Source: an uncultured virus (IMG/VR IMGVR_UViG_2061766007_000545)
Taxonomy: Duplodnaviria > Heunggongvirae > Uroviricota > Caudoviricetes
Strand: one strand, 5' to 3'
IMG/VR virus record: IMGVR_UViG_2061766007_000545
Length of the DNA stretch: 64,000 bases
Below the pieces are notes generated by a model. That model ran no database searches and had not been told where the DNA came from. It saw only the letters and a list, made by a program, of their open reading frames with translations. Numbering within the stretch: the first letter of the stretch is position 1; each line of letters begins with the position of its first letter. A program made the translations under genes and the position numbers. Shown here in pieces: positions 9,744 through 28,756 of this stretch.

Positions 9744-10110
9744 AAGGAGATTTCTAAGGAGATTTAACGTAGAAGCCTGCGCGCGGTCGTAGCTGTACGG
9801 ACATTAACAGCCTTGGNNNNNNNNNNATTTCTAAGGAGATTTGACGTAGAAGCCTGCGCGCGGTCGTAGCTGTACGGACATTAACAGCCTTGGGCGCAGT
9901 GTGCGTAGCTCCTGTCAAAATTTGACAGCCGTCAAAAACGTACTCCAGGTCGTAGCTGCGCAGCTTGCAGCTCCTCAAAATTTGACAGGGCGTATATTTG
10001 GATGGTATATGGTTTACTGTGTGGAATACGCACACGACCGAAAATTTGACAAAAGTGGAAATTAGACCTTAAAGGTCTAATAAAAAAAGAACCGCATTTG
10101 CGGTTCAAAT

Positions 10111-11091: not shown

Positions 11092-11217
11092 ATTATTTCT
11101 TGCTCCTTTCCTTTTCTTTATCTATATTATATCATACTTTTAGGAAAAGTCAACACTTAGTTCTAGACCTTTAAGGTCTAGTTTTATTTTAGAGAAAATT
11201 CGATTCTCCCCTTGGGG

Positions 11218-11670
11218 TTACTCTGTTTTGAGTAACCCCTTCAATACCTCAATAATCTCTTTTTCGGTCTTTGCTTCCGAACCACTCAGCGCCCAACCCT
11301 TGCGCACCTCTGCATTGTCATCAAAGAGAAAACCCTTGCGACCTTCGTGCTTTGGCGTGCCGTAGCGCACAACTTCAATCGAGTTAAACTTCACACTCTT
11401 GAGGTGAGTGGCGAGCCACTTCTTCTTCGTGCGCTCCACCTCTCTATCAAATTCAGGAGTAGCGGTAGCGGAACTCCAAGAGATAATCCCAATAAAATAT
11501 CCCTCATTCTGAAGCCGATTTAAGAGCCGAGCCAAAAGGCTCATATTCAACAGGGGCGCGCAGATTGCGTAAGGGCGAGGATTAAATTCCTTTAAATCAT
11601 CAATCCAAGTCGACACTCCGTAGAAGTCCGCAATCGTTCCGTCCATATCAAACCAAATTTCCTTAACCAT
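11218..11670 (-). CDS. HAD-superfamily phosphatase, 5'-nucleotidase-like
   Basis: IWFDMDGTIAD motif I, IISWS motif II, LFDD motif IV. Confidence 0.8.
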   Translation of the reverse strand: MVKEIWFDMDGTIADFYGVSTWIDDLKEFNPRPYAICAPLLNMSLLARLLNRLQNEGYFIGIISWSSATATPEFDREVERTKKKWLATHLKSVKFNSIEVVRYGTPKHEGRKGFLFDDNAEVRKGWALSGSEAKTEKEIIEVLKGLLKTE

Positions 11671-11832
11671 TTTTTTATTTCCTTTCTTTTTCTTTACACC
11701 CTTATTATACACCCATCAAACTAAAAAGTCAATCTCTTTTTAGGAAACAAATTAGACCTTTAAGGTCTAACTCTGCGGAAGAACGAAAGCGGAATTTCTT
11801 CCGCTTTCGCCCAAAGAAAAGAAAGGTTAAGA

Positions 11833-12582
11833 CTATTTAAGTCGAACTGTCGCTTTCGTTTTCTCGTACCGAATAGAGTTACAAGTAGTTTCATAAACCA
11901 CTTCATTATCTTTAATTACTCTAAACGGCTTTTCTACCTTGCGCTCGATACTACGAGGACAATCATAATCTTTCGTAAGGTCAGCGCCCATATCTAAACA
12001 ATAAAGGAGGATTTCGGTTTCAATTCTGCTATCACTCAATGCGGTGTGGTCTTCGATAAAAAGTACATTCTGCGTAAGGTAGCGATAGACAACCTCTGCG
12101 GTAGTGCTGTAGTTTCCGCTTTCGGTAAAGTAGTTATTTTCGGTACAAAAGTTTTTGTAGTCATCATCTACAATAAACTCGATTGCGTAGCCCCTAATGT
12201 CGTGAATCGGCATCTCATCAAATGGATTAAGGTTTTTATACCAATCACAGTTGAAGTCAAAGACTCTTTCATCAAAAGAACTATTAAAGGCGTAGGAGTG
12301 TTTTACTTCATACTCTCGGAAGTCCTTTCGCATCTGCCTACAAATGTAGCCGAATTTGTCCATTACTGTTTTGCGCTGACGCATAGCCGCCACATAAATT
12401 TCACGCTTGTCAGCATAGTAAGCGGAGCTAAACAAGGGCAAATTGTGCCATACCTGTTCTACTACAAAATCTCTCTCGACAAGGGTTTTGCGGGTTTCAG
12501 TGTTTACAATCACATATCCCACATTGTAACAGAACGGCTTGTCGAGAGAAGTCGTTTCCGTATCAAAAACACAAATATTCAT
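11833..12582 (-). CDS. DEDDh 3'-5' exonuclease (DnaQ-like)
   Basis: VFDTETT (ExoI), AFNSSFD (ExoII), HTALSD (ExoIII). Confidence 0.85.
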   Translation of the reverse strand: MNICVFDTETTSLDKPFCYNVGYVIVNTETRKTLVERDFVVEQVWHNLPLFSSAYYADKREIYVAAMRQRKTVMDKFGYICRQMRKDFREYEVKHSYAFNSSFDERVFDFNCDWYKNLNPFDEMPIHDIRGYAIEFIVDDDYKNFCTENNYFTESGNYSTTAEVVYRYLTQNVLFIEDHTALSDSRIETEILLYCLDMGADLTKDYDCPRSIERKVEKPFRVIKDNEVVYETTCNSIRYEKTKATVRLK

Positions 12583-12726
12583 TTCTTTTTGTTTCCTTTC
12601 TTTATCTTATGGCTTTATTATACACCTAAAGAAAACAAAAGTCAATACTTTTTTAAGGAATTTTCGGTTTTCTTTCGAAGATTTTCTAGACCTTTAAGGT
12701 CTAATTCAGATTGAAGAAAAAGCGGA

Positions 12727-13068
12727 TTACTCCGCCTTTTCTTCTTTTGCCTTGCGCTTTTCTGCGTCCTTCGCCATTTTTTTAGCTTTCTTCTTTTCGG
12801 CTTCCTCGGCTTTAATCCGTTTCTGCTCGACCTCAAAAGCATAATTGGAGGATTCAGCGTAGCCGTCATAGTCCTCTCCGCCACGAGTACCTGTAGGGAT
12901 AGAGAACACAGCCTTTACCCAGCCTTCTTCCATATCTTCGCCCACTACTTCGAGGGCAAGACCATTCGAGGCGACAACGAGGACAGTGTACCCCTCGGAT
13001 TCGAGATAAGTACGAACTTTGTCCATAATTTCGTTACGGCAAGGATTTAACTTTTTAGTATTTACCAT
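12727..13068 (-). CDS. hypothetical protein with Lys/Ala/Glu-rich tail
   Basis: Own promoter and RBS AAAGGAG. Confidence 0.75.
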   Translation of the reverse strand: MVNTKKLNPCRNEIMDKVRTYLESEGYTVLVVASNGLALEVVGEDMEEGWVKAVFSIPTGTRGGEDYDGYAESSNYAFEVEQKRIKAEEAEKKKAKKMAKDAEKRKAKEEKAE

Positions 13069-13199
13069 TGGCTTTTTGCTCCTTTCTGTTTCTTACACCC
13101 TTATTATACTACTATAAAAAGAAAATGTCAACAGTTTTTTTATAAGAAATTTTAGGGGAATTAGACCTCTAAGGTCTAACTACGTAGAAGGCGCGCCTT

Positions 13200-13433
13200 C
13201 TACTTCGCAACATATAATGCTAAAGAAAGAACGAAGATTGTAATTATATGAGTTACTACGAAAAAGAAAGTAGATTTTATTTCACAAAAGCAATCACAAA
13301 AATTTTCCCAAAAAGTGAATTTTTCTTGATAAAAATCTTCAAGTGCTTCTTTATTTTCTTTTAATTCTTTTATCGTCGCTTTAATCCATAAGATTTCGCC
13401 AATTATTAGCATCACAATCCAAATATATTTCAT
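13200..13433 (-). CDS. small two-TM membrane protein
   Basis: Hydrophobic termini; RBS AAAGGAG. Confidence 0.65.
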   Translation of the reverse strand: MKYIWIVMLIIGEILWIKATIKELKENKEALEDFYQEKFTFWENFCDCFCEIKSTFFFVVTHIITIFVLSLALYVAK

Positions 13434-13434
13434 T

Positions 13435-13695
13435 TTATACTCCTTTATAAAACATAATCAAAAAGAATACATTAAGTACAACACCGCTTAGGTGCATAAC
13501 CAAGCCGTTAATATGACGGTCGCTTGTCAGGTCTTTTACGATACCAACGAGCGCAATGAACAAGCCAAACCACGCAATACTTAATCCGAAAATCATAATC
13601 AAAATTACATTAAATACAGTTGCAAGGCATCTTAAATCGTTCCATTCAAATTCATAATCCTTTTCAATTTTAAAAAACTGTTTTACTTTTTCCAT
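13435..13695 (-). CDS. membrane protein
   Basis: Multiple hydrophobic segments; RBS AAAGGAGA before MEKVKQ. Confidence 0.7.
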   Translation of the reverse strand: MEKVKQFFKIEKDYEFEWNDLRCLATVFNVILIMIFGLSIAWFGLFIALVGIVKDLTSDRHINGLVMHLSGVVLNVFFLIMFYKGV

Positions 13696-13802
13696 CGGTC
13701 TATCTCCTTTCTTATGAATTAAGTATACCATAAGAAAAAGAAAAAGTCAATGATTTCTTTTTTAGGAAGTTAGACCTTTAAGGTCTAACAAGATTGTTGT
13801 GG

Positions 13803-14048
13803 TTAATTTTCCACAACAATATCATCAGAAATAAGAAAGTCAAGGAACTTTATTGTCGATTCAAAGTCGTCATCGTCATAGACTTTGTCATCGTCATCTT
13901 CAACGGACATGGCCCAAGTGTATCCTCCCATCACATCTGCGAATTGTCTGCGCAATTTTACTAGTTTATTAACCATTGAAATAATTTCATTTCTTTCATC
14001 GTCTGTAAGATATAAAAAAGCTCTATTATCTCTACGCAATTCTGCCAT
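13803..14048 (-). CDS. acidic hypothetical protein
   Basis: RBS GGGAGG. Confidence 0.7.
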   Translation of the reverse strand: MAELRRDNRAFLYLTDDERNEIISMVNKLVKLRRQFADVMGGYTWAMSVEDDDDKVYDDDDFESTIKFLDFLISDDIVVEN

Positions 14049-14051
14049 TTT

Positions 14052-14306
14052 TTATTCCTCCCATTTTTCATAAATTTCTGCTTCAAGTACTTCATAATTA
14101 TCAGACAAATCCGCATATTCCCACTCTTGTTTTGCTTTTGTTATAGCTTCCTCGTCATTAGAAGCGCTTACTGTAACAATAGCAGGGATTTTTACATATA
14201 CTCCTACTGTATACTCTTTAGTGGGACAATGTTCTTTCTCCCAATTTTGTGCTTGCCACAGTGTATCAAAAATTTTTCCATCATTAGTTTTATAAACTGT
14301 TTGCAT
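14052..14306 (-). CDS. hypothetical protein
   Basis: First gene after promoter; YKTNDGKIFDT N-terminus. Confidence 0.75.
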   Translation of the reverse strand: MQTVYKTNDGKIFDTLWQAQNWEKEHCPTKEYTVGVYVKIPAIVTVSASNDEEAITKAKQEWEYADLSDNYEVLEAEIYEKWEE

Positions 14307-14449
14307 TTTAGTATTTCCTTTCTTCTTTCTATGGTTTTATTATATCACACTAAAGTGAAAAGTGCAAGTCTTTTTTAGAAAAGGAATTAGACCTCTAAGG
14401 TCTAGTTCTACGTAGAAAGCGCGCCACCATTATCGGTGGCGGTGCGCCT

Positions 14450-14917
14450 TCACTTAAGGAGGTAATCTACTATATGACAAAGGAAGAAATGTCGTTTAAT
14501 AAAATCGATTGCCCAATCGGTTGCGTCCCATTCGCTTTTCATTTCAAAGTGGAGTACGGCAGCCGAGTTCCATTCTTTCTCGTTATCAGCAATCGAGCAA
14601 AGTAATTTTACAAGTGCGTCTTTCTCTTGCTCTGCTATTGCATCTTCTTCGGTATCAGCTTTTATATGTCCGATTTCGTGGAGTATAGTCCAAAGAAATG
14701 GAGAATAGTTTCGAGCGTTCTTGAATTTGTGGCGCTTTTCAATATGACTTATGAATAGGTCATCTGCGTCCGTATGGTTAAGATTTAAAATTATATAAGG
14801 AGGCTCATCAAAGACGCACTGATTTTCGGAAGTACGAGAGATAAAAACCTTACCTTCTTTTTTCAAAATAGATTTTGCAAAAATATTTGTGATAATTTCT
14901 TTTGCTTTCAGATTCAT
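14450..14917 (-). CDS. HExxH-motif protein (possible Zn metallopeptidase)
   Basis: WTILHEIGH and downstream EWDATDWA; RBS GAGGT before MNLKAKE. Confidence 0.6.
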   Translation of the reverse strand: MNLKAKEIITNIFAKSILKKEGKVFISRTSENQCVFDEPPYIILNLNHTDADDLFISHIEKRHKFKNARNYSPFLWTILHEIGHIKADTEEDAIAEQEKDALVKLLCSIADNEKEWNSAAVLHFEMKSEWDATDWAIDFIKRHFFLCHIVDYLLK

Positions 14918-15045
14918 CTGCCGTACCTCTCTTTCACTTTCTAAAACAAGTATAACATAAGAGAAAAGAAAAGTCAATCACTTTCTTTAAGGTAGATTAG
15001 ACCTTTAAGGTCTAGATAGATAAGAGGATTTAGTCCTCTTTTGTT

Positions 15046-15342
15046 TTAAATTTCTTCTGCGTCTTCTATTCCATTAAAATAGTTATTAATATCCTCTTCG
15101 GTTGCTTCCTGTACTTCATAGTAGCAACCATCCTGATACCACTCTATTGCATTTTCATACTCTTCTTCATTATCAAAATTGTCTGGTTCTCCTACGAGAT
15201 ACTCATAAAGAGAAGAGTAGTCATATAATCCTTCTTCCATCCAATCTTCTACTTCGCGCGGACTTTCTGCTAAAAAAAGATGGTATTCTTCAGTGCCACA
15301 GTATGGAGTAGAGTACTTTCCAATATAATATTTCTTTGCCAT
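15046..15342 (-). CDS. small highly acidic, Tyr-rich protein
   Basis: Own promoter, RBS, terminator. Confidence 0.75.
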   Translation of the reverse strand: MAKKYYIGKYSTPYCGTEEYHLFLAESPREVEDWMEEGLYDYSSLYEYLVGEPDNFDNEEEYENAIEWYQDGCYYEVQEATEEDINNYFNGIEDAEEI

Positions 15343-15507
15343 TTTATTTCTCCTTTCTTTTGTAATTTTATTATACTCCTTTTAAATAAAAAAGTCAATA
15401 ACTTTTTTAATTTTTCTAGACCTTTAAGGTCTAACTTCTCTTTGAAAAGTGGGGCGGAGTTCCACCGCCCCGATGTCCTAAAATTTGCGCTTGGGGAGGG
15501 AAGCCGA

Positions 15508-15888
15508 CTACTCGGCTTCTACCTCATCGGCATCGGCTACCTTGTAGGCAACCTGCTCGCCCTTACCCTTGACCTTAACCTTCTCGGTCACAAGTGCGCC
15601 CTCGTTCACAAGCAAACGAGCAACTCCCGTAACCTTCTGCGTGGTCAGACCAAGAGCCTTAGCGATTTCCGTACCAAGAACAGCGCCCTTGTCCTCAAGG
15701 AAAGCGAGAATCTCTGCCTTGACAGGCTCGTTCTCCTTCTGCTTCTTGTTAGGGGTGTTCTTGCGCTTCTCGTTCTTTGCATCAAGCCCCTTAATCAGAG
15801 CTACACGCTTTGCTTCGTCATCTCCCTGAAGATTGTACTTTGCAAGTCCTTCAAGGAATGCTCTCGTTGTCATAATCTCTACTGCCAT
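15508..15888 (-). CDS. putative winged-helix DNA-binding protein (paralog of 9338-9697)
   Basis: EILAFLEDKGAVLGTEIAKALGLTTQKVTGVARLLVNEGALV; shares LDAxNEKRxNTPxKxQKEN with 9338; two tandem promoters (~15943-15972, ~16045-16074). Confidence 0.65.
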   Translation of the reverse strand: MAVEIMTTRAFLEGLAKYNLQGDDEAKRVALIKGLDAKNEKRKNTPNKKQKENEPVKAEILAFLEDKGAVLGTEIAKALGLTTQKVTGVARLLVNEGALVTEKVKVKGKGEQVAYKVADADEVEAE

Positions 15889-16270
15889 AATGTTTTTCCT
15901 TTCTTGCGGTTTGGTCGCAACCCTTTCTCTTTTTTACACTTTTATTATATCACAAGATTTTCGGTTTGTCAAGAGTTTTTTTAATTTTTTTTGAATTTTT
16001 TTTTGAAGTGCTTTGCGCTCTTGCCTTTCCTTATCTTGTAACCTTATTATACTACCGAAAAGAGAAAAAGTCAATCCCTTTTGAAAAGATTTTTCGGAAT
16101 AAATTAGACCTCTAAGGTCTAATTAAATACCACCATGAATAGGATCCCGAAGGTTTTTTAACCTATTCTCTCTGTGCTTATTGGTGGTGATAAGCCCCTC
16201 ACTTACGCAGCAGGCGCGCTTTGGTAAGATAGGAAACTCGTCCTTGCGCATTATTCTTACTCAAAGTTGA

Positions 16271-16343
16271 TGATGCTCTGATGGGACTCGAACCCATACC
16301 CCCAGCCAATAAGGCTGATATTCTGCCAATTAAACTAAGAGCA
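16271..16343 (-). tRNA. atypical tRNA-like gene, anticodon UAU (Ile-like), possibly degenerate
   Basis: TGCTCT-TAGTTTAATTGGCAGAATA-TCAGC-CTTATTG-GCTGG-GGGT-ATGGG-TTCGAGT-CCCAT-CAGAGCA-TCA; canonical D and T loops, imperfect acceptor stem. Confidence 0.6.
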
Positions 16344-16601
16344 TTTTAGGTAGACCGTTTCTCGTATGGTTCGAAAACTAAAAAGATGGTCAGTCTTTTT
16401 AAAAAATAACCCTCACTTTATCGGCGAGACCGCCACAGTTCCGTATGTGGGACTTACGAGAAGAGGTATCCGAAGTTTTATCTCGATTTATTATCTCCGT
16501 TCCTTACCTTCTGAAGTAATTATATCATAGAAGAATTAAAAAGTCAATACCTTTTTAGGAGAGTTATCTAGACCTTTAAGGTCTAAGTGTAATCCGTATT
16601 T

Positions 16602-17002
16602 CTACGGATTCTGTAAAAGCATATTGATACTATCGGCAAAATCTTCTTCTTCCTCTTCTTCATCAGGAAACATTTTCTTACTACACTCCTCGCACATACC
16701 GAGAATCATTTCTCTTTCTCCTGCGGTAAGATAAGGGAATGCTTTCTGAACAAGTTCGCCTTCTTCAAACTCCCAAAAGTCATCTTCGTTTACCCAAATA
16801 GAAGCACATTTTCTGCACCATCTACAAGAGCAAAGCATCTCGACTTCTTTATGATTCTCTTTCTTTTCATGCAGACGCTCGTGCGCATTGTCCACCGCAT
16901 CTCTTAATTCTTTCTTTGTTGCAATGTCATCTTCGTAAGCAGTAATCATATTTGCAAGATACTCGATAAAATCTTCCNNNNNNNNNNAATAAAATCTTCC
17001 AT
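16602..17002 (-). CDS. hypothetical protein with Cys clusters (gap near start)
   Basis: MEDFIEYLAN...CSCRWCRKC...CEEC. Confidence 0.65.
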
Positions 17003-17119
17003 TAGTTTTTCCTCTCTTTCTTTTTTGTAACTCTACTATAGCATAGAAAGCGCGCAATGTCAATAGAAAGAGTTAGACCTTTAAGGTCTAATTAGTTCCA
17101 CGGATTTCCGTGGATTAAA

Positions 17120-17488
17120 TTAGTACCATCGAGTAAAAATATGATACTGAAGTTTTGCTTTTGAAAAAATTTCTTGGTTTCTCATAAAAAATTCTTTTGC
17201 TTTATCGAGAAAATTACTGAATTCCTCTATATCTTCTATAGGAAATACTTCATTTACAAGTTCTTCTAAAGAAGAGAAATGAATATCTCTATCCTTTATT
17301 GGGCGCCAATATCCAATAAAAACATCATCTGCGGTATACGCATCTCTAATTAAGACCAAATCATTATCAACAATATAGTCGTGAAGTTCTCCTCCGCCTA
17401 TTTCTGCAATAGAGTCAAGTGCATTTTCAAAATCATTTTCACGAATCATAATCCCATATCCTATTACAACTTCGCATTCTACTGACAT
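17120..17488 (-). CDS. hypothetical protein; cargo of the cassette missing in the alternate haplotype
   Basis: Own promoter and RBS AAAGGAGA. Confidence 0.75.
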   Translation of the reverse strand: MSVECEVVIGYGIMIRENDFENALDSIAEIGGGELHDYIVDNDLVLIRDAYTADDVFIGYWRPIKDRDIHFSSLEELVNEVFPIEDIEEFSNFLDKAKEFFMRNQEIFSKAKLQYHIFTRWY

Positions 17489-17806
17489 TTTCTTTCTCCT
17501 TTCTTTTTATAATTTAAGTATACTATAAACCATTAACTTTGTCAATCATATTTCAGGAAGTTTATTAGACCTTTAAGGTCTAATACTACGTGGAAAAGAA
17601 AAGGGAATAAATCCCTTTTCTTTCCTATGAAGAATATGTGTATCATTATAAGCGCTATCTAATGCGCTCATATANNNNNNNNNNACATAGAAAGCGCGCA
17701 ATGTCAATAGAAAGAGTTAGACCTTTAAGGTCTAGTTCTGCGTGGAAAAGAAAAGGGAATAAATCCCTTTTCTTTTCTATGAAGAATATGTGTATCATTA
17801 TAAGCG

Positions 17807-18335
17807 CTATCTAATGCGCTCATATACAACACGATAGGAGTAGGCTTCGGTTTTGCCACTATGACCATATCCTTTATAAACTGTAGTATCTTTTACCTTA
17901 CTCCGAACCTTAACAAGTTTAAGGTANNNNNNNNNNAGCTTCAGTTCTGCCACTATGACCATATCCTTTGTAAACTGTAGTATCTTTTACCTTACTCCGA
18001 ACCTTAACAAGTTTAAGGTAACCCTCGTTTACTAAATCGTAAAAAGCGCAAACTGTAGAGCGAGAGGCTCCCCACTTACTACCGGGCGTAATCAAATCAC
18101 CAATCTTCGTGTCGTTGAGAATCTCTTTCTTTCGTCTGTCGATACGAACATTATTCGATCTGCGCTCGCTTTCATTGATAATAGTCCGAATAGCGTCATA
18201 ATAAGCAAAATCAGCTATTGAATCTTCAGAGGGACTAAGCACAATTTCAATAGCCTTACTTACGTCCTTTTCACCGTGCAGATAATACTTCTGACTTACT
18301 TCCATTTTTTCAAATCTGTCGTTTAACTTTACCAT
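17807..18335 (-). CDS. hypothetical protein (3' end duplicated across gap)
   Basis: MVKLNDRFEK...GYGHSG(K/R)TEAYSYRVVYERIR. Confidence 0.65.
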
Positions 18336-18482
18336 TTCTTTTTTTCTTCCTTTTCTTTTTTTATTTTAGAAGTATCTCTCTTCTATGATTAAAGTATACC
18401 ATAAGAGAAAAGAAATTGCAAGTCTTTTTTAAGAGATAAGTTAGACCTTTAAGGTCTAGTTTTGGTTGAAGAAAGAGAGGGA

Positions 18483-18782
18483 CTATGCCCTCTTCTTTAA
18501 CTTTTCAACTTCGCGCTTGTATGCATTGGCATACTGCAGGGGATTGTCATACGGAATGACTTTCTTTTCCTTAAGAGCCTTGCGGTACTTAGTGGCTCGT
18601 ACTTCGTCAGCGCGCGACCTTGCATCGCGTTCATCATCAGTTAACCCATCCCATCCGATAAGAGTAGCCTTGAGGTCTGCGCCCTCTACTTCGCGCGATG
18701 CCTGTGCGTCTGCAAGTGTGCTTACAACCATTCCATCAATTTCGCCTTTTTTATTAAGTTCTGCATATACAAGTTTGTTCAT
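18483..18782 (-). CDS. hypothetical protein
   Basis: Own promoter, RBS GAGGT, terminator overlapping stop. Confidence 0.75.
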   Translation of the reverse strand: MNKLVYAELNKKGEIDGMVVSTLADAQASREVEGADLKATLIGWDGLTDDERDARSRADEVRATKYRKALKEKKVIPYDNPLQYANAYKREVEKLKKRA

Positions 18783-19324
18783 ATTAGGATTACCTCTCTC
18801 TTTCTTTATTTTGTAACTTTATTATATCATTTTTTAGAAAAAAGTCAATAGTATGAATTAGACCTTTAAGGTCTAACTCTGCAGACGGCGCATTATAATG
18901 CGTCGTCGCCTTTGAAATTCTTAAACTTATCCCAAAGCACAATCGTTACGGAAGTAATGCAACCTGCAATAAATCCAAATAATGCGCCAAATACAAATCC
19001 AATTACTGCTCCCATTTTTCTACCTCGGCTCTAATATTATATGGAGATATAGTTTTATCTTCTTCGCAACAATATGCGTTAAAGGGGCACTCTCTACACT
19101 CTCCCATATCTTCACAAGCATCTACGATACCTTTCATCGCCTCAATCATTTTTGCTTGCGCGTCATTAAGTTCTATTTTCTTTTCTGGNNNNNNNNNNTT
19201 ACGCAGACGGCGCATTATGATGCGTCGTCGCCTTTGAAATTCTTAAACTTATCCCAAAGTACAATCGTTACGGAAGTAATGCAACCTGCAACAAATCCGA
19301 ATAATGCACCAAATACAAATCCAA

Positions 19325-19775
19325 TTACTGCTCCCATTTTTCTACCTCGGTTCTAATATTATATGGAGATATAGTTTTATCTTCTTCGCAACAATATGCG
19401 TTAAAAGGGCATTCTCTACACTCTCCCATATCTTCACAAGCATCTATGATACCTTTCATTGCCTCAATCATTTTTGCTTGCGCGTCATTAAGTTCTATTT
19501 TCTTTTCTGGAGAAGGCATTATCTCTTCTTCAAAAGTTTTCTTCAAATATTCCTCAAAACTTTCAAGAAAAGCGTTCTCTTCCCAANNNNNNNNNNTTTT
19601 TCTTCAAATATTCCTCAAAACTTTCAAGAAAAGCGTCCTCTTCCCAATAAAAAATATCGCCAACATTATCCGCAAAGTTACTCATTAACTGACCGAATCT
19701 CCAATCGGGGCAATACTTCTTATGAAGTTCCTTAATCTTCTCGTAAAATTCATCAAGTCTATTTGCATCTCTCAT
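19325..19775 (-). CDS. hypothetical protein with CxxCPF Cys cluster (split by gap; allele at 19003-19188)
   Basis: MRDANRLDEFYEKIKELHKKYCPDWRFGQL joins EEYLKKTFEEE...CRECPFNAYC. Confidence 0.6.
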
Positions 19776-19792
19776 TTTACTTTTCTCCTCTC

Positions 19793-19957
19793 TTAATAAT
19801 CCCAACCGAACATCTCACGCCATTCATCATCTTCTTCATCAGCGAAACAGCCGATAAAAACAAAAGCCTCTTCTTCTTCATAGGGAGTATCATCTCTGTA
19901 ATACTCTTCGGGAGTTACGAAAGCATCAACTCTTTCATCATAAATAAATCTTGCCAT
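19793..19957 (-). CDS. small acidic protein
   Basis: RBS GAGGT before MARFIYDE. Confidence 0.65.
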   Translation of the reverse strand: MARFIYDERVDAFVTPEEYYRDDTPYEEEEAFVFIGCFADEEDDEWREMFGWDY

Positions 19958-20089
19958 TTTAATTACCTCTCTTTCTTTGGCTTGCGCCTTTTCTTTTTTA
20001 CAAGTAAAGTATATCATAGAAAAGAAAGAATGTCAACCGTTTTCTAAAAATTTTCTTAGACCTTTAAGGTCTAACTATGGAATGGGATT

Positions 20090-20419
20090 TTATTCCCATT
20101 CCTTGAACCATCTATCCATTTCTCTAATAAGGTCGAACCAATATCTATCGAGGAATTCTTCGATTTCTTCAGACCAATCAAGGTCAAAATCATCTTCTAT
20201 CCAACTAAAGCAACCCTCAAATTCACTTTCAATCCAAAAGCGAACTTCATTCTTGAGTCTTTCGGTAATATTTTCTCCATAACGATAAATTGTATCAAGG
20301 TCTTTATAAATTTCTCCAATATAGTCATAATCACTATTATAAAGAGATTTGGTCATATTGTCATAAAGTTTTGAATAAAACTCATCTTCGCTTCTTCGAG
20401 ATTTGAATTTAAGTTTCAT
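20090..20419 (-). CDS. acidic, Trp-rich hypothetical protein
   Basis: Own promoter and RBS. Confidence 0.75.
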   Translation of the reverse strand: MKLKFKSRRSEDEFYSKLYDNMTKSLYNSDYDYIGEIYKDLDTIYRYGENITERLKNEVRFWIESEFEGCFSWIEDDFDLDWSEEIEEFLDRYWFDLIREMDRWFKEWE

Positions 20420-20543
20420 AAGTAGTTACCTCTCTTTCTTTACTGTGATTAAAGTATATCATATACCTTAATTTTTGTCAATCCTTTTTAAAAAAGAAAA
20501 TCGGAATAAATTAGACCTTTAAGGTCTAACTTGGTTTGGCGCA

Positions 20544-20759
20544 TTACCATGCGCCTTCACGACACGATTTTAATTCTTCCAACCACTGAATCATTTGGTA
20601 GTTCCATTCTTTCTGATGGGCAACCCATTTTAATTCATCTTGATATTCTCGGATAACGCTTTCTGCGTCTTCCTCACAATAGATTTTTTGTTCTCTTTCT
20701 TCTGCTTCTTGGTATTTCATTCTATAATAGAGAATTGCGCTATTTAGTTCAAATTTCAT
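20544..20759 (-). CDS. hypothetical protein
   Basis: Overlaps upstream gene end; RBS AAAGGA. Confidence 0.65.
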   Translation of the reverse strand: MKFELNSAILYYRMKYQEAEEREQKIYCEEDAESVIREYQDELKWVAHQKEWNYQMIQWLEELKSCREGAW

Positions 20760-21090
20760 TTTTGGTTCCTTTCATAATTGCTTTACAGTTAGGGCAGAAG
20801 TTATAACTACATTTATTATAATCATTTTTTACTACTTCTCCACATTCGCTACACTTGTAATAGTATCCATAAGTTTCGCCCATTCCGCAACCTTCGCTCC
20901 AATAACTACCTCTTATCCACATTCCGACTTTATGTTCTTCGTAAGATTCTTCTTCATCATCTGCTTTGATGGTCGGAGCAAGATGTATATAATTCCAAAA
21001 GGCGCAATCCTCTTCGCAACCCGGCATTTTACGGCACATTTCTGTACACCACTTTTCTTGCAAAGCATCAGCATCAATCAATCTTCCCAT
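20749..21090 (-). CDS. zinc-ribbon protein
   Basis: MGRLIDADAL start; CSECG...FCPNC. Confidence 0.75.
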   Translation of the reverse strand: MGRLIDADALQEKWCTEMCRKMPGCEEDCAFWNYIHLAPTIKADDEEESYEEHKVGMWIRGSYWSEGCGMGETYGYYYKCSECGEVVKNDYNKCSYNFCPNCKAIMKGTKNEI

Positions 21091-21248
21091 TTTCTTTTTG
21101 CTCCTTTTTATGAAAGTTTCTCTTTCTTTATCTTTCTAAAAAAATTATATCATATTTTTGGAAAAATTTCAAGTTTTAATTTTCTTTTCTTGTTAGACCT
21201 CTAAGGTCTAATTACCCCTTCTGCAGAAGGGGCGGTATTGCATCTATA

Positions 21249-21563
21249 TTATAGAGGATAAGTATCCTCTAATAACATTCCAACAACTATTTCGATTACA
21301 TCGTTAGCCGTAAGCCAACCACGAACAGTATCTCCGCATTCGTCCTCGTCTACGATACAGCCCATAATCTCGAGCAATCCATCTTCGTGACCATAGCTTC
21401 CGCTATGGCATACGGCATCCCAGGCACGGCTATTATCTTTTGAATAAACAACAATCTGCGCACCATCAAAGAAGGTCTTAAAGGTAAAACGAAAATTATT
21501 CGTCGCCAACCAACAACAAAGTTTTCCGAGTTCCGTAAGGTTAATTGCTTCTTTTTCTTTCAT
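21249..21563 (-). CDS. hypothetical protein
   Basis: WDAVCHSGSYGHEDGLLEIMG; own promoter and RBS. Confidence 0.75.
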   Translation of the reverse strand: MKEKEAINLTELGKLCCWLATNNFRFTFKTFFDGAQIVVYSKDNSRAWDAVCHSGSYGHEDGLLEIMGCIVDEDECGDTVRGWLTANDVIEIVVGMLLEDTYPL

Positions 21564-21733
21564 ACTGCTTAACTCCTTTCTTTTACTATACTTATTATAA
21601 TATATAAAAAACAAAAAGTCAACACCTTTTTAAAACTTAATTAGACCTTTAAGGTCTAACAAATCAATTGCTACACCGGGGCGCGCCAACAACGCACGTC
21701 CCGGCGGGTTCTGACACCTGTTTTCCTTCAGGC

Positions 21734-21907
21734 TTAGTACACATCGTAGGGATACCACTCAGACTCTTCTTCGGTCATTACCGTAACAAGCTTAGGACTT
21801 TCAAAAAGTCTTTCAGCAAAGAGAATAGCCTGTAGTTTATCATTTGCGTTTACGAAGAAATCTTCGCCCGTTTCTTCATCATTAAATAAGTAGTACATTT
21901 CTTTCAT
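21734..21907 (-). CDS. small acidic protein (57 aa)
   Basis: MKEMYYLFNDEETGEDFFV; RBS GAGGT; own promoter. Confidence 0.7.
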   Translation of the reverse strand: MKEMYYLFNDEETGEDFFVNANDKLQAILFAERLFESPKLVTVMTEEESEWYPYDVY

Positions 21908-22032
21908 ATCTGTTTACCTCTCTTTCTTTTGTAACTAAAGTATATCATAAGTAAGAAAGAATGTCAAGTACTTTGGAAGAGATTTGTTAGACCTATAAGG
22001 TCTAATTACCTCCCTTTCGGGAGGCGGAGGTT

Positions 22033-22341
22033 TCAACAGTATATTAAGGAATAGTTAGCCCACTTAAATATTGAAATTTGGTTACACTCACGTCCGAGCG
22101 CCAGCGCTTTTTTCTTCGTGCTGATGCGCTTCGACTTATCAATATACCAAATTCCATTTTCAAGCCACAAACCACAATTTCCGTTGTAGCGCTTCATTAT
22201 CGAGCGCACTTTTGTGATGTCGGTTGTGGTTTCGCCTTCTGTAGCTACTTGATAGCCACTTTTATAATTTATAATTTTACCATCTTTAAGAGTAAGACCG
22301 CCATTATTTTCGATTTTGCGAAGTGTTCTGATGTTTATCAT
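22033..22341 (-). CDS. basic hypothetical protein
   Basis: Own promoter; RBS GGGAGG. Confidence 0.75.
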   Translation of the reverse strand: MINIRTLRKIENNGGLTLKDGKIINYKSGYQVATEGETTTDITKVRSIMKRYNGNCGLWLENGIWYIDKSKRISTKKKALALGRECNQISIFKWANYSLIYC

Positions 22342-22859
22342 TTTTTGTTCCTCCCTTTTCTTACTATAGTCATTATATCATATTCAATTTAATTTGTCAA
22401 TCATTTATAAAGAGATGAATTAGACCTTTAAGGTCTAATTCAGATAAGGAAAAAAGAGAGTTCGCGACCTCTCTTTTTTCCCCAAGTTCTCGAGTTACTT
22501 GTCTTTTTTCATTCTTTGCTTTGCGGATAAAGATAAACCCTTCTGCAGAGAGTTTCCTCGGTTTTCTTGTATGCTTTGCGATGGAAAACCGCCCACTCTC
22601 AAGTCTAAAAGAAACCGTACCCCATAAGGAAAGTAACTACACACAACCCAACCTCTTGAGTCGATTGCCCTCACCACTCCTCAGTATCACCTCGTTGCTT
22701 ATCTCTTATGTTGGTTTTAGTATACCATAGAAAAAGAAAAAAGTCAATACTTTTTTAGAAATAAATTCAGATAAATTAGACCTTTAAGGTCTAGATTCAA
22801 TGCACGAAGCGCACTTTGGTCGCTTCATGCACAAGATAATTTGACGCTAAAAGATTTAC

Positions 22860-22958
22860 TTATCTCAAATAGTTATTTGCGATAAAAATAATAATGTCAA
22901 TAAAACCCGAAATTGCAATAAGAATTTTCGCTACCACTTTAAGAATCATATTTTTCAT
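22860..22958 (-). CDS. 32-aa hydrophobic peptide
   Basis: MKNMILKVVAKILIAISGFIDIIIFIANNYLR; RBS AAAGGAGA; sole cargo of its cassette. Confidence 0.6.
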   Translation of the reverse strand: MKNMILKVVAKILIAISGFIDIIIFIANNYLR

Positions 22959-23083
22959 TTTTGTTATCTCCTTTCTTTTTGTAATTAAAGTATAACATAG
23001 ACTTTATTTTTTGTCAATACTTTTCTGAAATAAAAACTAAATAAAATTAGACCTTTAAGGTCTAATAATAAAAGAAGAGGACA

Positions 23084-23293
23084 TTAGTCCTCTTTAATCC
23101 CTAAGATTTTAAAGTAGTCATCGAGTTCTGCCAGCGCCACTTTAGGGTCTCCCTCTTGGAGAGCTTCGCCTAAAGCAAGGAGAGAATACCGAGCCGCGCT
23201 AATCGCGAGACTCTGATTAGTATTTAATTCATGAAATGCTCTTGCATCTTCGAGTTTGTCTAACATTTTATTAATAAGTTCAAAGTGTGTCAT
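23084..23293 (-). CDS. hypothetical protein
   Basis: Own promoter, RBS, terminator. Confidence 0.75.
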   Translation of the reverse strand: MTHFELINKMLDKLEDARAFHELNTNQSLAISAARYSLLALGEALQEGDPKVALAELDDYFKILGIKED

Positions 23294-23407
23294 AGTGTTT
23301 ACCTCTCTTTCTTTTGTAACTTAAGTATAACATAGAAAAGTTAAAATGTCAACCACTTTTTGGAAGTTAAATTAGACCTTTAAGGTCTAACTTTATTTGG
23401 AAGAGAT

Positions 23408-23683
23408 TTACTCTTCCATTTTCGCACCACACCACGGACAGTATGGAGTAAGTAACTCTTCCGTGCATACTTGCCAACCACATTCGGAACATTCAAAAGT
23501 ATCGACAAGAAAAGGATTTACTTTTATCCATATTCCTTTCCGTTCCTCGTAAGGTTTTAGAGGACAGTTATCGTCTCTCTTATTGTTCAACCAACCGTTT
23601 GCCAATCCGTACTCGCATCGAGTTTTTAATTGGCACTCGGAACAACTGTTCGGCATATTCATATTTGTTAAAATTACGCTCAT
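23408..23683 (-). CDS. zinc-ribbon protein
   Basis: MPNSCSEC and CSECG...YCPWCGAKM. Confidence 0.75.
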   Translation of the reverse strand: MSVILTNMNMPNSCSECQLKTRCEYGLANGWLNNKRDDNCPLKPYEERKGIWIKVNPFLVDTFECSECGWQVCTEELLTPYCPWCGAKMEE

Positions 23684-23874
23684 TTTTGTTTACCTCCCTT
23701 TTTGTAATTAAAGTATATCATACACTTTTAATTTTGTCAATCACTTTTAGAAAAACTTTTCAGATTAAATTAGACCTTTTAGGTCTAACTCATAAAATAC
23801 CGCGAGAGCGCGCCTAGTCTCCCAGCAGCGCGCCCTCGGGCATAAGGAGGTGTGCTATGATTTTTGATAACGAG

Positions 23875-23966
23875 AGGGATAGGTGGGAGTCGAACCCACG
23901 AGCCTACAGAGCTTGTAAGTCTTAAGCCTTACAAGGGCACAGACAATCCGGTCTGCTAACTATCCC
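23875..23966 (-). tRNA. non-canonical tRNA-like RNA with CUUAAGA (Leu UAA-like) loop
   Basis: 7-bp acceptor GGGATAG/CTATCCC, T arm GTGGG-TTCGACT-CCCAC, 6-bp D-like stem, 8-bp anticodon-like stem; no encoded CCA. Confidence 0.6.
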
Positions 23967-24231
23967 ATATTTACCGCGAGGGAAGGAAAAGCGGAGGAAT
24001 TTTTTGAGGAATTTCTTTTTCCTTCCCTCATCTTCTGACGTAAGTATACCAAAATTTTTGAGAAAAGTCAATACTTCGAATTAGACCTTTAAGGTCTAAC
24101 TCTACGAAAAAAAAAGAGAAGTCTTTCGACTTCTCTACGGGATTACTCCGATTAAACTTTTCAAACCCATCCTACGGGCGTTACCGCGTAGGCTTAGCTA
24201 CTGAGTGTCTTTCTTTCCCGATTTATAAAAG

Positions 24232-24402
24232 TTAGTTCCTTACTCTATAATAAATAAGGAAGTACTTTTTGATACAACTGAACCGCTCACCATCGAGCGT
24301 CCAAAACTCATCATAGCTACCGCGACGTCCTTCGCGCGCGAGTGCGTCCAAGATAAGGTCTTTTTTTCTTTTTGAATTTACTTTTACAATCTGAATTGTC
24401 AT
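24232..24402 (-). CDS. hypothetical protein (56 aa)
   Basis: MTIQIVKVNS...GRRGSYDEFWTLDG; RBS AAGGAGG; own promoter. Confidence 0.7.
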   Translation of the reverse strand: MTIQIVKVNSKRKKDLILDALAREGRRGSYDEFWTLDGERFSCIKKYFLIYYRVRN

Positions 24403-24609
24403 TGTAGCATTCCTCCTTTTCTTTTATACACTGATTATACTACAAAAAACCGATTCTGTCAAGTGATGCGCGCTCGATAAAACTAGACCTTTGAGGTCTA
24501 ACTTTATTTCGGGAATAGTTATGCGATCGTTCTGAATATTTATTCATGAATATTTATTCAGTAAAAAGTGTATAAAAAAAAGAGCGGGATTTCTCCCGCT
24601 CTTTTCGGT

Positions 24610-25400: not shown

Positions 25401-25447
25401 AACTAACTCCTTTCGTCTATGTGGGCGGACTTGCGTCCGCCCTTTGT

Positions 25448-25606
25448 CTACTTGTTTCGAGCAAGGCGGATGCGCTTGCCGTTTGCGTCATATTCCGCCG
25501 TTGCGATAACCTTGCCACTCTTCAAGAAAGTCTTGAAGTAGCCGTTTCCGAAAGTCTTTTTTTGAGTCCATACGGAAAACATTCCGTAATTGATTGTCGT
25601 TGCCAT
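25448..25606 (-). CDS. small basic protein (52 aa)
   Basis: MATTINYGMFSVWTQKKTFGNGYFK; RBS AAAGGAGA. Confidence 0.65.
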   Translation of the reverse strand: MATTINYGMFSVWTQKKTFGNGYFKTFLKSGKVIATAEYDANGKRIRLARNK

Positions 25607-25710
25607 AGATTTCTCCTTTCCGTCCTTGCGGGCGGGCGGACTTGCGTCCGCCCTTTTGTTTCTACTCTTCGTAGAAGTCCGCCAAAATCGGCTGATTGTT
25701 NNNNNNNNNN

Positions 25711-25995
25711 GCTGGAGTACCTAGAGAGACTTTATAATGGACTACTTGCTACTCAGAACGTAAATGGCACGCTTCAAGAAGACCAGGCTTTTAAGATTTG
25801 TAAGATTTCGTATGAGATTGATAGTAGAATTCGTGCGGGCACGGATTTTGATAAACTATTAAGTTCATATGATAAGCTTTTGAAAGAAGCCGATTTTACT
25901 CCGAAGAATGTTAAGAATATAAATGATTTTGATTCTTTTGGAGAGGTTGCGCGTTGGCTTGAGAAGAATGGATGGAAAAATAGGTATTATGATGA
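25711..25995 (+). other. Misplaced fragment that probably fills the gap in the 28734-29696 gene
   Basis: Bounded by N-gaps; LEYLERLY...KNRYYD reads plausibly between ...NYDDE(A) and VTRDVVDETI. Confidence 0.75.
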
Positions 25996-26042
25996 NNNNN
26001 NNNNNCCCTTGCGGGCGGGAGGCTTGCGCCTCCCTTTTGTTT

Positions 26043-26564
26043 CTACTCTTCGTAGAAGTCCGCCAAAATCGGCTGATTGTTGCAACATTCCCAAATGTAA
26101 TTTGCGATTGCCTTGCTTGCCTTAGGGCGCTTGCTATCGCTTACATAAAAGGACTGAATGTGCATTCCGTCGGACGCCTTGCGGATAAACTGTCCTCTTC
26201 CGTCATATCCCTCAAGGAAGTCAATCCATTCTTCCTTGCTGAATACATAAGCCTGAAATTCAGGCTCGATGTTCAAGTCAACATCGGGACAGTAGATAAT
26301 CCACTTTACAGACTTTGCAAGGCTGTCGTCTAACCGTCCGCAAGCGGACTTAATTTCGACCGTTTCGGACTTTCCGCCAAAAACCTTTGAACGAATGTCC
26401 GCCTTGCCCTGACTCTTTACCTTATAATCCTTGCGTCCGCTCATATAGTAGCGAATTGCTACCTCGAAAGCCTTACCAACAAGCCCGTCATCAATGATAG
26501 CGGTCTCGGCATTTGCAAGCCTTTTTCCGATATAGGAATTCATAAAGTCAATAGTATTGAACAT
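26043..26564 (-). CDS. putative PD-(D/E)XK (restriction endonuclease-like) nuclease
   Basis: GKAFE helix, KADI, VEIKS in the expected order; RBS GAGGT before MFNTIDF. Confidence 0.55.
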   Translation of the reverse strand: MFNTIDFMNSYIGKRLANAETAIIDDGLVGKAFEVAIRYYMSGRKDYKVKSQGKADIRSKVFGGKSETVEIKSACGRLDDSLAKSVKWIIYCPDVDLNIEPEFQAYVFSKEEWIDFLEGYDGRGQFIRKASDGMHIQSFYVSDSKRPKASKAIANYIWECCNNQPILADFYEE

Positions 26565-26634
26565 AGTCAAAACCTCTCTTTTTTGCGTATTTTTGTGCGG
26601 ACAAGTCAACACACCTTGTTCTACCATAACCGAA

Positions 26635-26648: not shown

Positions 26649-26946
26649 GATTACTGTTTTACCGAAAGTAATTATCGTGAAATTAGATTGTCAATGTGCT
26701 TTGCTTGACTATAGAATATCACACTGTTAGACCATAGTCAAGCACTATTTTAAAAAATTTTTTAGGCGGGGTATATTTTAGGATTTCACCGAAATCGATT
26801 GCCGCGCCCGAAGGGCCCTGGAACATTTTCCCCACGAAGTAAAAAATTCATTTCTCCTTACATCATTGACCTACGAAGTAAAAATTTCATCCCTCCTCGC
26901 ACCATTAATCTATTTTCTCCCCTCTAATTTTCTCCTCCCGAAATTT

Positions 26947-28422: not shown

Positions 28423-28756
28423 ACAGAAATTATCTAAACAATCGGAAGAACTTATGCTGATTTTTCAAAAGCTATCCCCGGAGGAGTTAATAGGATTAGC
28501 GAAATTCCTTAATGTTAATATAGGTAGGTTAGATTGTACCGACCAAGAGGGAAATCCCGTAGAACTCGAAGAGGCAATGAAAAGTCCAAAAGATTATAAG
28601 TTCGATCCTAAGTATAAAGAGTTATATGAGCTTTTGACTGATATAACAGTCGCTTTTGAGATGAAGGCGCGCGGTGAACGTAGAGCATTACTTCGAACCC
28701 TTCGTAAACTCCAAAAGCGAAAGGAGGACATTGATGGGACTCAAACCGAAGATTAA
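28415..28756 (+). CDS. hypothetical protein
   Basis: RBS AGGAGA; overlaps neighbours. Confidence 0.65.
   Translation: MSEQKLSKQSEELMLIFQKLSPEELIGLAKFLNVNIGRLDCTDQEGNPVELEEAMKSPKDYKFDPKYKELYELLTDITVAFEMKARGERRALLRTLRKLQKRKEDIDGTQTED

Follow-up and report, generated by a model that had tools for sequence, protein, structure and literature searches.

Organization of the Early Gene Array

The 64,000-nt stretch of IMG/VR virus record IMGVR_UViG_2061766007_000545 (Caudoviricetes) analyzed here, hereafter the window, carries on its minus strand, between 11.1 and 24.5 kb, an early array of 27 small transcription units that share a single layout, the recurring element of which is a 19-bp palindrome upstream of the promoter. 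The window is a portion of a large uncultured siphovirus-like phage, and contigs from cattle-gut metagenome runs cover nearly all of it; no RNA run was listed for the region. Pfam and PHROG scans identified structural genes (portal, virion genes, tape measure, and Dit/Tal-type tail genes) together with metabolic and DNA genes (anaerobic ribonucleotide reductase NrdD/NrdG, a dUTPase-like gene, and a RuvC-like resolvase). The Pfam scan comprised 103 open reading frames (ORFs) of the window, which covers part of the phage genome; the majority of window ORFs were without a family, most array ORFs likewise had no Pfam or PHROG match, and megablast matched the array to none of 50,697 phage records.

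In the direction of transcription, a unit consists of the terminal hairpin of the previous unit, a gap of 0 to 15 nt, the palindrome, a spacer, a promoter, a ribosome-binding site (RBS), and a gene or tRNA. The palindrome is TTAGACCTTAAAGGTCTAA, or TTAGACCTTTAAGGTCTAA when written as the plus-strand 19-mer, and has a perfect 9+1+9 form with an AT-rich center. At three or fewer mismatches, 28 copies were found in the window, 27 of them within 11163-24501, compared with 0.03 expected from shuffled sequences. The promoters have TTGACa/t at −35, 17-bp spacing, and mostly TGnTATAAT or TATACT at −10, followed by a strong RBS and then ATG or a tRNA; they score 11 to 14 on the 14-point scale of the scan, which makes them near-consensus, with extended −10 elements and A/T tracts resembling those of UP elements. 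A scan of the whole window returned 32 strong promoter-like sites, 25 of which are accompanied by the palindrome; inside 11-24.6 kb the fraction is 25 of 26, the lone palindrome-free promoter being the second of two tandem promoters 5′ of a winged-helix gene. An upstream hairpin is present at 26 of the 27 sites, and the hairpins differ between units. The palindrome itself was ruled out as an intrinsic terminator, since it is not consistently followed by a T-run.

The 28 copies are listed below. The best TTGACA-N16-18-TATAAT match marks the promoter, and spacer lengths are counted from the palindrome to the upstream edge of that match.

10062-10080, no strand assigned: 28th palindrome copy, without promoter, at the convergent end of the array; central base of opposite polarity
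11163-11181, minus strand: palindrome, spacer 9 bp, −35 TTGACT from 11153
11752-11770, minus strand: palindrome, spacer 19 bp, −35 at 11732
12686-12704, minus strand: palindrome, spacer 40 bp with three phased A-tracts, −35 at 12645
13161-13179, minus strand: palindrome, spacer 29 bp, −35 at 13131
13770-13788, minus strand: palindrome, spacer 19 bp, −35 at 13750
14387-14405, minus strand: palindrome, spacer 19 bp, −35 TTGCAC
14997-15015, minus strand: palindrome, spacer 19 bp, −35 at 14977
15416-15434, minus strand: palindrome, spacer 17 bp, −35 at 15398
16104-16122, minus strand: palindrome, spacer 29 bp, −35 at 16074; first of the two tandem promoters of the winged-helix gene
16568-16586, minus strand: palindrome, spacer 20 bp, −35 at 16547; unit with tRNA-Ile(TAT) at 16272-16343
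17073-17091, minus strand: palindrome, spacer 9 bp, −35 at 17063
17565-17583, minus strand: palindrome, spacer 19 bp, −35 at 17545
17717-17735, minus strand: palindrome, spacer 9 bp to a readable TTGACA, −10 under masked N at 17675-17684; recent duplicate region, a 96-98% duplicate of the 17073/17565 region
18441-18459, minus strand: palindrome, spacer 19 bp, −35 TTGCAA at 18421
18858-18876, minus strand: palindrome, spacer 9 bp, −35 at 18848
20056-20074, minus strand: palindrome, spacer 19 bp, −35 at 20036
20511-20529, minus strand: palindrome, spacer 29 bp, −35 at 20481
21193-21211, minus strand: palindrome, spacer 20 bp, −35 TTGAAA at 21172; one end of a 448-bp cassette deletion joint
21641-21659, minus strand: palindrome, spacer 18 bp, −35 at 21622; the other end of that joint (21201 to 21650)
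21987-22005, minus strand: palindrome, spacer 19 bp, −35 at 21967
22420-22438, minus strand: palindrome, spacer 19 bp, −35 at 22400
22776-22794, minus strand: palindrome, spacer 28 bp, −35 at 22747
23047-23065, minus strand: palindrome, spacer 29 bp, −35 at 23017
23372-23390, minus strand: palindrome, spacer 19 bp, −35 at 23352
23770-23788, minus strand: palindrome, spacer 29 bp, −35 at 23740
24081-24099, minus strand: palindrome, spacer 9 bp, −35 at 24071; unit with a tRNA-like gene at 23874-23966
24483-24501, minus strand: palindrome with 2 mismatches, spacer 20 bp, −35 at 24462; the sole site without a clear upstream hairpin

Palindromes Step from the Promoters in Helical Turns

Spacer lengths at the 27 promoter-linked sites fall into discrete classes: 9 bp at five sites, 17 and 18 bp at one each, 19 bp at 10, 20 bp at three, 28 bp at one, 29 bp at five, and 40 bp at one. 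The preliminary description of this DNA had listed spacings of 9, 17-20, 28-29, and 40 bp at about 26 promoters; recomputation matched that list at all 27 sites and returned the same empty ranges (10-16, 21-27, and 30-39 bp), and sharing of the site across the array stands, with the count corrected to 27 and the promoterless copy at 10062 making the 28th. The vector strength of the 27 spacings is 0.865 at a period of 10 bp and 0.877 at 10.5 bp. With 17-bp promoter spacing, the palindrome centers lie at about −54, −64, −74, and −85, these positions being approximate because the start sites are predicted.

The gap on the other side of the palindrome, toward the hairpin, takes the continuous values 0, 1, 2 and so on to 9, then 14 and 15 nt, which indicates that the palindrome is registered to the promoter and not to the terminator. 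Spacers of equal length share 0.35 to 0.41 identity, compared with 0.28 to 0.32 expected from composition, and the 9-bp spacers (all five in the window and all six in a related phage locus, L324) are exact in length, are neither A-rich nor A-tracts, and are dissimilar in sequence. Judging from these comparisons, selection acts on the length of the spacer and not on its sequence.

Recurrence of the Phasing in Related Phages

Relatives were found by a pattern scan, by scans of genome and metagenome collections, and by using the sigma-like protein encoded next to the array as a query. The pattern scan identified a 94-kb IMG/VR contig (G001) with nine palindrome copies, the collection scans returned many short contigs with palindrome arrays, and the sigma-like protein search detected 18 further loci besides G001, from phages of roughly 100-130 kb. 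Locus L324 has 12 palindrome-promoter pairs with spacers of 9 bp (six), 19 bp (five), and 20 bp (one), and locus L340 has eight pairs, at 8 bp (three) and 9 bp (five). A further 67 pairs from other array contigs have spacers of 7-12, 18-21, 27-29, 39-41, and 49-54 bp, plus 60, 69, and 102 bp. After de-duplication and restriction to spacers of 65 bp or less, the pooled set of 127 spacers peaks at 9-10, 19, 29, 40, 49-52, and about 60 bp, with 120 of the 127 inside bands that span 25 of 56 positions. Its best vector strength (R) is 0.796 at 10.2 bp, and R is 0.769 for the 103 spacers that remain when the window is left out. In agreement with the phasing first noticed in the window, the histogram across relatives is therefore nonuniform, with a 10.2-bp period that none of 5,000 uniform null sets equaled in strength.

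Other linker motifs of the relatives served as internal controls: CCCGGG(CG) and GTTAGT-N4-ACTAAC linkers lie at continuous distances from the −35 element (17, 18, 21, 22, 22, 28, 30, 32, 42 bp, and so on). On other contigs, at least eight palindromes lie between two promoters that point away from them, with in-band spacing on either side. The continuous hairpin gap, the dissimilar spacers, the recurrence in relatives, the unphased control motifs, and these divergent promoters together argue that the phasing exceeds what shared ancestry or modular A-tracts would give.

The palindrome arms are identical among phages whose proteins are just 30-68% identical. Many relatives have an arm variant, TTAGACG(T)...(A)CGTCTAA, in which C7 becomes G in one arm and, in compensation, G13 becomes C in the other. 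Variation is otherwise concentrated in the central 3-5 bp, which differ between phages and are fairly uniform within one phage; in the group of G003 the center consists of five variable bases and the arms are only 7 bp. G003 and G005 are complete genomes with terminal repeats; each has its 11-12 sites confined to the final ~6 kb beside a terminal repeat, a location that fits an early, first-entering region.

Other motifs occupy terminator-promoter linkers in relatives: GCCCGGGCG, the palindrome AGTTAGTCACAACTAACT, and TTATGAACAATTTGTAAAC, the last of which lies, by eye, 14 or 22-24 bp from the −35 element. Loci with such linker motifs are L095 (G001, 59.9-70.3 kb), L347 (G002, 118-127.5 kb), L339, and L325. 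Several metagenome-assembled genomes (MAGs) of Patescibacteria contain a longer palindrome that has the same arms (..TTAGACCTCCGAGGTCTAA..) and genome-specific flanks, in many dispersed copies; the contigs concerned are from Moranbacteria (L110, L126, L142, L164, L169, and L173) and Wildermuthbacteria (L120-L123, L133, L136, L152, and L168), in addition to two further groups (L159, L160, and L187; L162 and L163). Stop-free frames of 600-800 nt enclose several of these copies, which resemble in-frame palindromic insertion elements. A patescibacterial host for the phage was considered on account of these MAGs and was dropped as unsupported, the metagenome runs of the window being from cattle gut.

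Cassette Junctions Lie at the Phased Linkers

Contigs from four other metagenome runs were aligned to 10-25 kb of the window to locate junctions. Between related strains, entire cassettes are gained or lost, and the junctions fall within palindromes or next to them. The joint from 21201 to 21650, seen in three runs, skips 448 bp and has 10 shared letters, and further cassette skips were found at 14989 to 15417, 16112 to 16577, 16558 to 17566, 20036 to 22774, 23360 to 23768, 22999 to 23770, and 18464 to 19987. Many other junctions fall in the −10/RBS part of the linker. The preliminary description had set regulation against recombination as explanations of the palindrome; that opposition fails, since cassette gain and loss takes place in or next to palindromes that are phased, and regulation and recombination would coexist at the same linkers. 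The array also contains recent tandem duplications at 94-97% identity (17565-17674/17717-17826, 18881-19180/19203-19502, and 24725-24858/24870-25003), one of which takes in a palindrome and its promoter.

A Proposed Operator for the Early Promoters

Our reading, made with moderate confidence, is that the palindrome serves a sequence-specific dimer as its operator, and that this protein acts from a single helix face on RNA polymerase bound at the promoter. Conserved arms of 7-8 bp, a variable center of 3-5 bp, the compensated arm change, and service to promoters on either side are what a dimer operator would show, and the fixed helical register to the −35 element suggests that RNA polymerase and the bound protein interact along a single helix face. 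Anatomy, phasing, recurrence, conservation of length over sequence, compensatory arm change, and linker junctions are all observed; what we infer is that a protein binds, that it touches the polymerase, which sign its regulation has, and which protein it is.

In the mechanism that we propose, the array would consist of some 27 self-contained cassettes, each with hairpin, palindrome, A/T-tract (UP-like) spacer, promoter of the host sigma-A/sigma-70 type, RBS, and small gene or tRNA. A putative homodimer, probably phage encoded, would place one subunit on each 7-8-bp arm (TTAGACC, or TTAGACG in some relatives) and leave the center unread. With the operator kept 9, 19, 29, or 40 bp from the −35 element (and 50 or 60 bp in relatives), the bound protein would always be on the same side of the polymerase, where its likely contacts would be the alpha C-terminal domains, placed on the A/T tracts in between, and one factor could thereby control the entire early class at once. 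We favor coordinated shut-off or polymerase trapping over activation as the predicted outcome, because the promoters are already near-consensus. The repeated linkers would double as junctions for homologous recombination, by which cassettes could be added, removed, or swapped between strains. A dimeric protein acting on RNA polymerase had been proposed from the window alone by analogy with CRP class I activators; phasing, selection on length, dimer-operator anatomy, and divergent promoters speak for such a protein, and the part of that analogy that is not evident is the need for activation, given near-consensus promoters.

Several observations weigh against this reading. The promoters, being near-consensus, are without need of an activator. 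The extra length in the 19-, 29-, and 40-bp classes is made up of A/T tracts about one turn in length, a T-tract plus an A-tract, that resemble UP-element subsites, so the stepping may come partly from modular UP-like units and not from the operator. In G001 the spacings are 43, 49, 51, 51, 57, 58, 59, and 94 bp, only four of the eight in bands, and the promoter-proximal place is taken by another conserved element, TTATGAACAATTTGTAAAC-like. G002, a complete genome of 127.6 kb, is without any palindrome and carries linkers of the CCCGGGCG type instead; it is 94% identical to L324 across 9.4 kb of late genes, and so close a relative without the palindrome indicates that the palindrome is dispensable or replaceable.

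Candidate Binding Proteins

Genes considered as sources of a binder, in addition to the ORF at 21249-21563, were the following.

26043-26627, minus strand: putative restriction-endonuclease-fold (PD-(D/E)xK) protein, hereafter the nuclease-fold protein
26700-26750, minus strand: promoter of the nuclease-fold gene, TTGACT-17-TATTCT, with half-site GGTCTAA at 26727-26733 inside the −35/−10 spacer
15508-15888, minus strand: winged-helix early gene, MarR-like below the Pfam cut-off; second promoter at ~15972 without palindrome
27448-28422, plus strand: sigma-like protein (phrog_5767) with region-4-like helix-turn-helix and C-terminal Zn ribbon, flanking the array

The nuclease-fold protein (174-194 aa) has 230 metagenomic homologs and no Pfam domain, and residues D57, E71, and K73 are invariant in an alignment of 38 homologs. 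An AlphaFold2 model built with those 38 homologs reached a predicted local distance difference test score (pLDDT) of 88; an earlier model from four sequences had reached 57, and its Foldseek list was not significant. In structure alignment (VIA-align) of the pLDDT 88 model, nearly all of the best rows were PD-(D/E)xK nucleases at middling Z scores of 4.5-6.8, headed by restriction endonuclease 3ndh (6.8), NhoI (6.6), NaeI (5.4), I-Ssp6803I (5.3), and DpnI (5.0), followed by Hjc, MspI, HhaI, and PvuII, with a homing endonuclease and Holliday-junction resolvases among the classes; Foldseek returned no match for this model at E ≤ 0.001. The window, L324, L340, G003, and G005 all have the gene, G001 gives a weak match, and the complete, palindrome-free G002 lacks it; these are few lineages, in which the gene is linked to the array, and an IMG/VR search with the protein returned no lineages beyond the relatives already found. 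Among the five nuclease-fold genes that have their own upstream region, four (window, L324, G003, and G005) carry a half-site of the matching arm in their own promoter; the exception is L340, and the G001 gene is without its own promoter. Only three stray palindrome half-sites occur in the 64-kb window, and the half-site in the nuclease-fold promoter combined with this scarcity suggests that the palindrome reader may autoregulate. The nuclease-fold protein is thus the best current candidate for the binder, and an unproven one.

Three other candidates were rejected. The winged-helix gene is conserved in relatives, and a single-protein IMG/VR search with it returned nothing, but the palindrome-less G002 also encodes a copy, the copy of L324 (a locus with 18 palindromes) is 61% identical to that of G002 with nearly the same recognition helix, and recognition helices diverge widely among phages with the same arms. 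The sigma-like protein is not specific, being encoded just as well by G002, and the protein encoded at 21249-21563 has the right profile of presence and absence but no DNA-binding features and no named relatives.

The winged-helix gene has tandem strong promoters ~100 nt apart (window 15890-16075, minus strand), the proximal one after a long A-rich tract and without palindrome, and the same layout is found in G002 at 123897-124100. In the C-terminal half of the sigma-like protein, the sigma region-4-like helix-turn-helix is followed by a CxxC...CxxC zinc ribbon, and the protein is 35-41% conserved across 19 related loci. Its gene is interrupted in frame by TAG codons, and by no other stop codon, in L324 (five), L338 (five), L339 (nine), L340 (five), and G001 (one), and none in the window and the L327 group; the TAG-bearing loci include L324:10001-10921, L338:424-1341, L339:6728-7642, L340:10001-10906, and L322:9944-10840. 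Alignments often place Q at the TAG positions, a sign that part of the phage family may recode TAG.

Alternative Explanations of the Palindrome

The palindrome could primarily be the target of a homodimer of the nuclease-fold protein, which would cut or nick the linkers and shuffle cassettes in the manner of an integron, with any effect on transcription secondary. The PD-(D/E)xK-type structural matches and the invariant D57, E71, and K73 are consistent with this explanation, as are the co-occurrence of gene and palindrome (with G002 lacking both), the half-site in four of five of the gene's own promoters against three stray half-sites in the window, and the cassette junctions inside palindromes. 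We nevertheless consider it unlikely, if the likeliest of the alternatives. Structural Z scores of 5-7 are middling and went with no Foldseek match at the E ≤ 0.001 threshold, and the co-occurrence comes from few lineages in which gene and array are physical neighbors. Self-cutting at 27 sites would demand protection or control, and no methyltransferase was found among the 103 Pfam-scanned ORFs of this part of the genome. A cleavage site needs no phasing with the −35 element, and the many junctions in the −10/RBS part fit plain homologous recombination between repeats. A combined role, in which the nuclease-fold homodimer reads the palindromes for phased control of the early promoters, controls its own promoter through the half-site, and also nicks or breaks the linkers for cassette exchange, would be decidedly unlikely. 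If the nuclease-fold protein were the binder, transcription control would be linked to cassette mobility, and if the dual role were true, integron-like shuffling between coinfecting phages would form part of the early regulatory code.

We find it quite improbable that the palindrome is a linker that spreads with promoter cassettes and has no dedicated binder, the 10-bp steps being A/T-tract or UP units that the polymerase needs in phase. The architecture, including recombination between copies, matches that of the promoter-early stem-loop (PeSL) cassettes as far as the excerpts of that report describe them (PMC2839356), and natural cassette insertions and deletions occur at the linkers. The T-tract plus A-tract patterns of the 19-, 29-, and 40-bp classes are also in keeping with such a linker, the other linker element of G001 steps between 14 and 22-24 bp (by eye) by an inserted A/T-tract unit, and G002 manages without the palindrome. 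Against this explanation speak the exact 9-bp spacers, which are neither A/T tracts nor alike in the window (5/5) and L324 (6/6), identical arms across phages with 30-68% protein identity, and an arm change compensated on both sides. Other linker motifs are unquantized, and distances vary continuously toward the terminator where those toward the promoter are fixed.

That the palindrome works through its shape, as a cruciform or hairpin that negative supercoiling behind strong promoters extrudes, or as a host-factor site, and tunes promoters or insulates units with no phage-specific binder, is very improbable: the perfect 9+1+9 form with AT-rich center, the position directly 5′ of very strong promoters and directly 3′ of hairpins, a compensatory arm change that keeps pairing, and the precedent of phage N4, the early promoters of which use extruded hairpins, are set against conservation of the arm sequence, and not pairing alone, across distant phages, the five variable central bases and 7-bp arms of the G003 group, a half-site inside another promoter that this explanation does not predict, and the lack of an N4-like virion RNA polymerase in the general Pfam and PHROG scans of the window.

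Relation to Known Systems

The nearest known architecture to that of the array is the PeSL cassette, and the nearest geometry is that of a class I activator site or of the sites of phi29 p4. In the T4-type phages RB49 and phi1, PeSL cassettes consist of a stem-loop, an AT-rich tract, a sigma-70 early promoter, and a Shine-Dalgarno sequence 5′ of orphan genes, and the copies recombine, which explains gene gain and loss between close relatives, according to the excerpted report (PMC2839356). The array has the same module 5′ of small orphan genes in a plastic region, likewise with cassette gain and loss between copies, insofar as those excerpts allow comparison. In PeSLs the stem-loop itself (often GGGG...CCCC) is repeated, at five positions relative to the promoter, and the excerpts report no phasing (PMC2839356). 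The conserved element of the window is instead a separate 19-bp AT-rich palindrome with fixed arms that is phased to the −35 element, and its hairpins vary; the phages differ in type as well, the window having siphovirus-like tail genes, and in habitat.

The sites of class I activators, CRP for example, are centered at −61.5, −72.5, −82.5, or −92.5. Like them, the palindrome would be a symmetric dimer site at integral turns 5′ of the −35 element, with room for the alpha C-terminal domain. Its centers are instead at about −54, −64, −74, and −85, one site is shared by ~27 promoters of a single array, and the promoters are near-consensus with UP-like tracts and not the weak core promoters of class I activation.

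The phi29 regulator p4 can repress a strong promoter by holding the polymerase there. It is an early protein that binds inverted repeats 5′ of promoters used by the host polymerase and switches early transcription off and late transcription on; its four sites, of the form 5′-CTTTTT-15 bp-AAAATG-3′, act together with p6, and A-tracts lie in the site region, as described in the p4 paper, in which the phrase "promoter clearance" has zero occurrences (PMC3100819). Inverted repeats upstream of promoters with A-tracts nearby are common to both systems, with the difference, as far as the p4 excerpts go, that in the window one compact palindrome is found at every early promoter.

Sites of the GAC-Nx-GTC type are recognized by AhdI, DrdI, and Tth111I. 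The modeled nuclease-fold protein, a small PD-(D/E)xK candidate with a D...ExK arrangement, and the interrupted palindrome TTAGAC-N7-GTCTAA would resemble type IIP endonucleases (PvuII-, NhoI-, and ThaI-like folds) and their sites; unlike in those systems, no methyltransferase partner was found among the 103 scanned ORFs of the window, and the sites lie, phased, in the phage's own promoters. The stoperators of the temperate mycobacteriophages L5 and Bxb1, through which one protein controls many units, are asymmetric 13-mers in one orientation, located in transcribed DNA, that block elongation. Dozens of copies of one short intergenic site serving many units are a shared feature, with the binder putative here, whereas the palindrome is symmetric, lies between hairpin and promoter, and serves divergent promoters in relatives.

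What sets the array apart from these systems is the combination of a separate, sequence-conserved palindrome with helical register at every early promoter in a family of uncultured phages, to which a possible nuclease-fold reader would add. Searches of the open-access literature, including work on helical phasing of early promoters and on phage intergenic palindromic repeats, turned up nothing that describes this arrangement, and a literature search with the sequence words TTAGACC, GGTCTAA, TTAGACG, and CGTCTAA returned unrelated primers only. Control of arrays of orphan early genes in large uncultured phages of gut and digester is little understood, and one palindrome in register with every early promoter, with compensated variants and common to a family of about 95-130-kb phages, offers a simple testable code. 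The natural spacing series of 9, 19, 29, 40, 50, and 60 bp is material for studying communication between an upstream factor and RNA polymerase, the regulatory code is tied to natural sites of cassette exchange, and a protein family of 230 homologs without Pfam domain is nominated for testing.

Other Features of the Window

The array includes an early 5′-deoxyribonucleotidase-like gene (phrog_2643; 11218-11670, minus strand), and a dUTPase/dCTP-deaminase-like gene lies at 58616-59569 (minus strand); together they are a hint of changed nucleotide pools and, possibly, of DNA modification. Two ORFs that flank the sigma-like gene, at 25421-26125 and 28734-29696 (both plus strand), match separate parts of phrog_3314; the pair is one gene in relatives, and the second ORF is broken by a masked run of 237 N. 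A second class of promoters has a fixed AAAAT immediately 5′ of TTGAAA-17-TGnTATAAT and occurs in the window at 2927 and 9147 (both plus strand); many copies are found across non-early parts of G001 (L096-L099), and these promoters may be a middle class.

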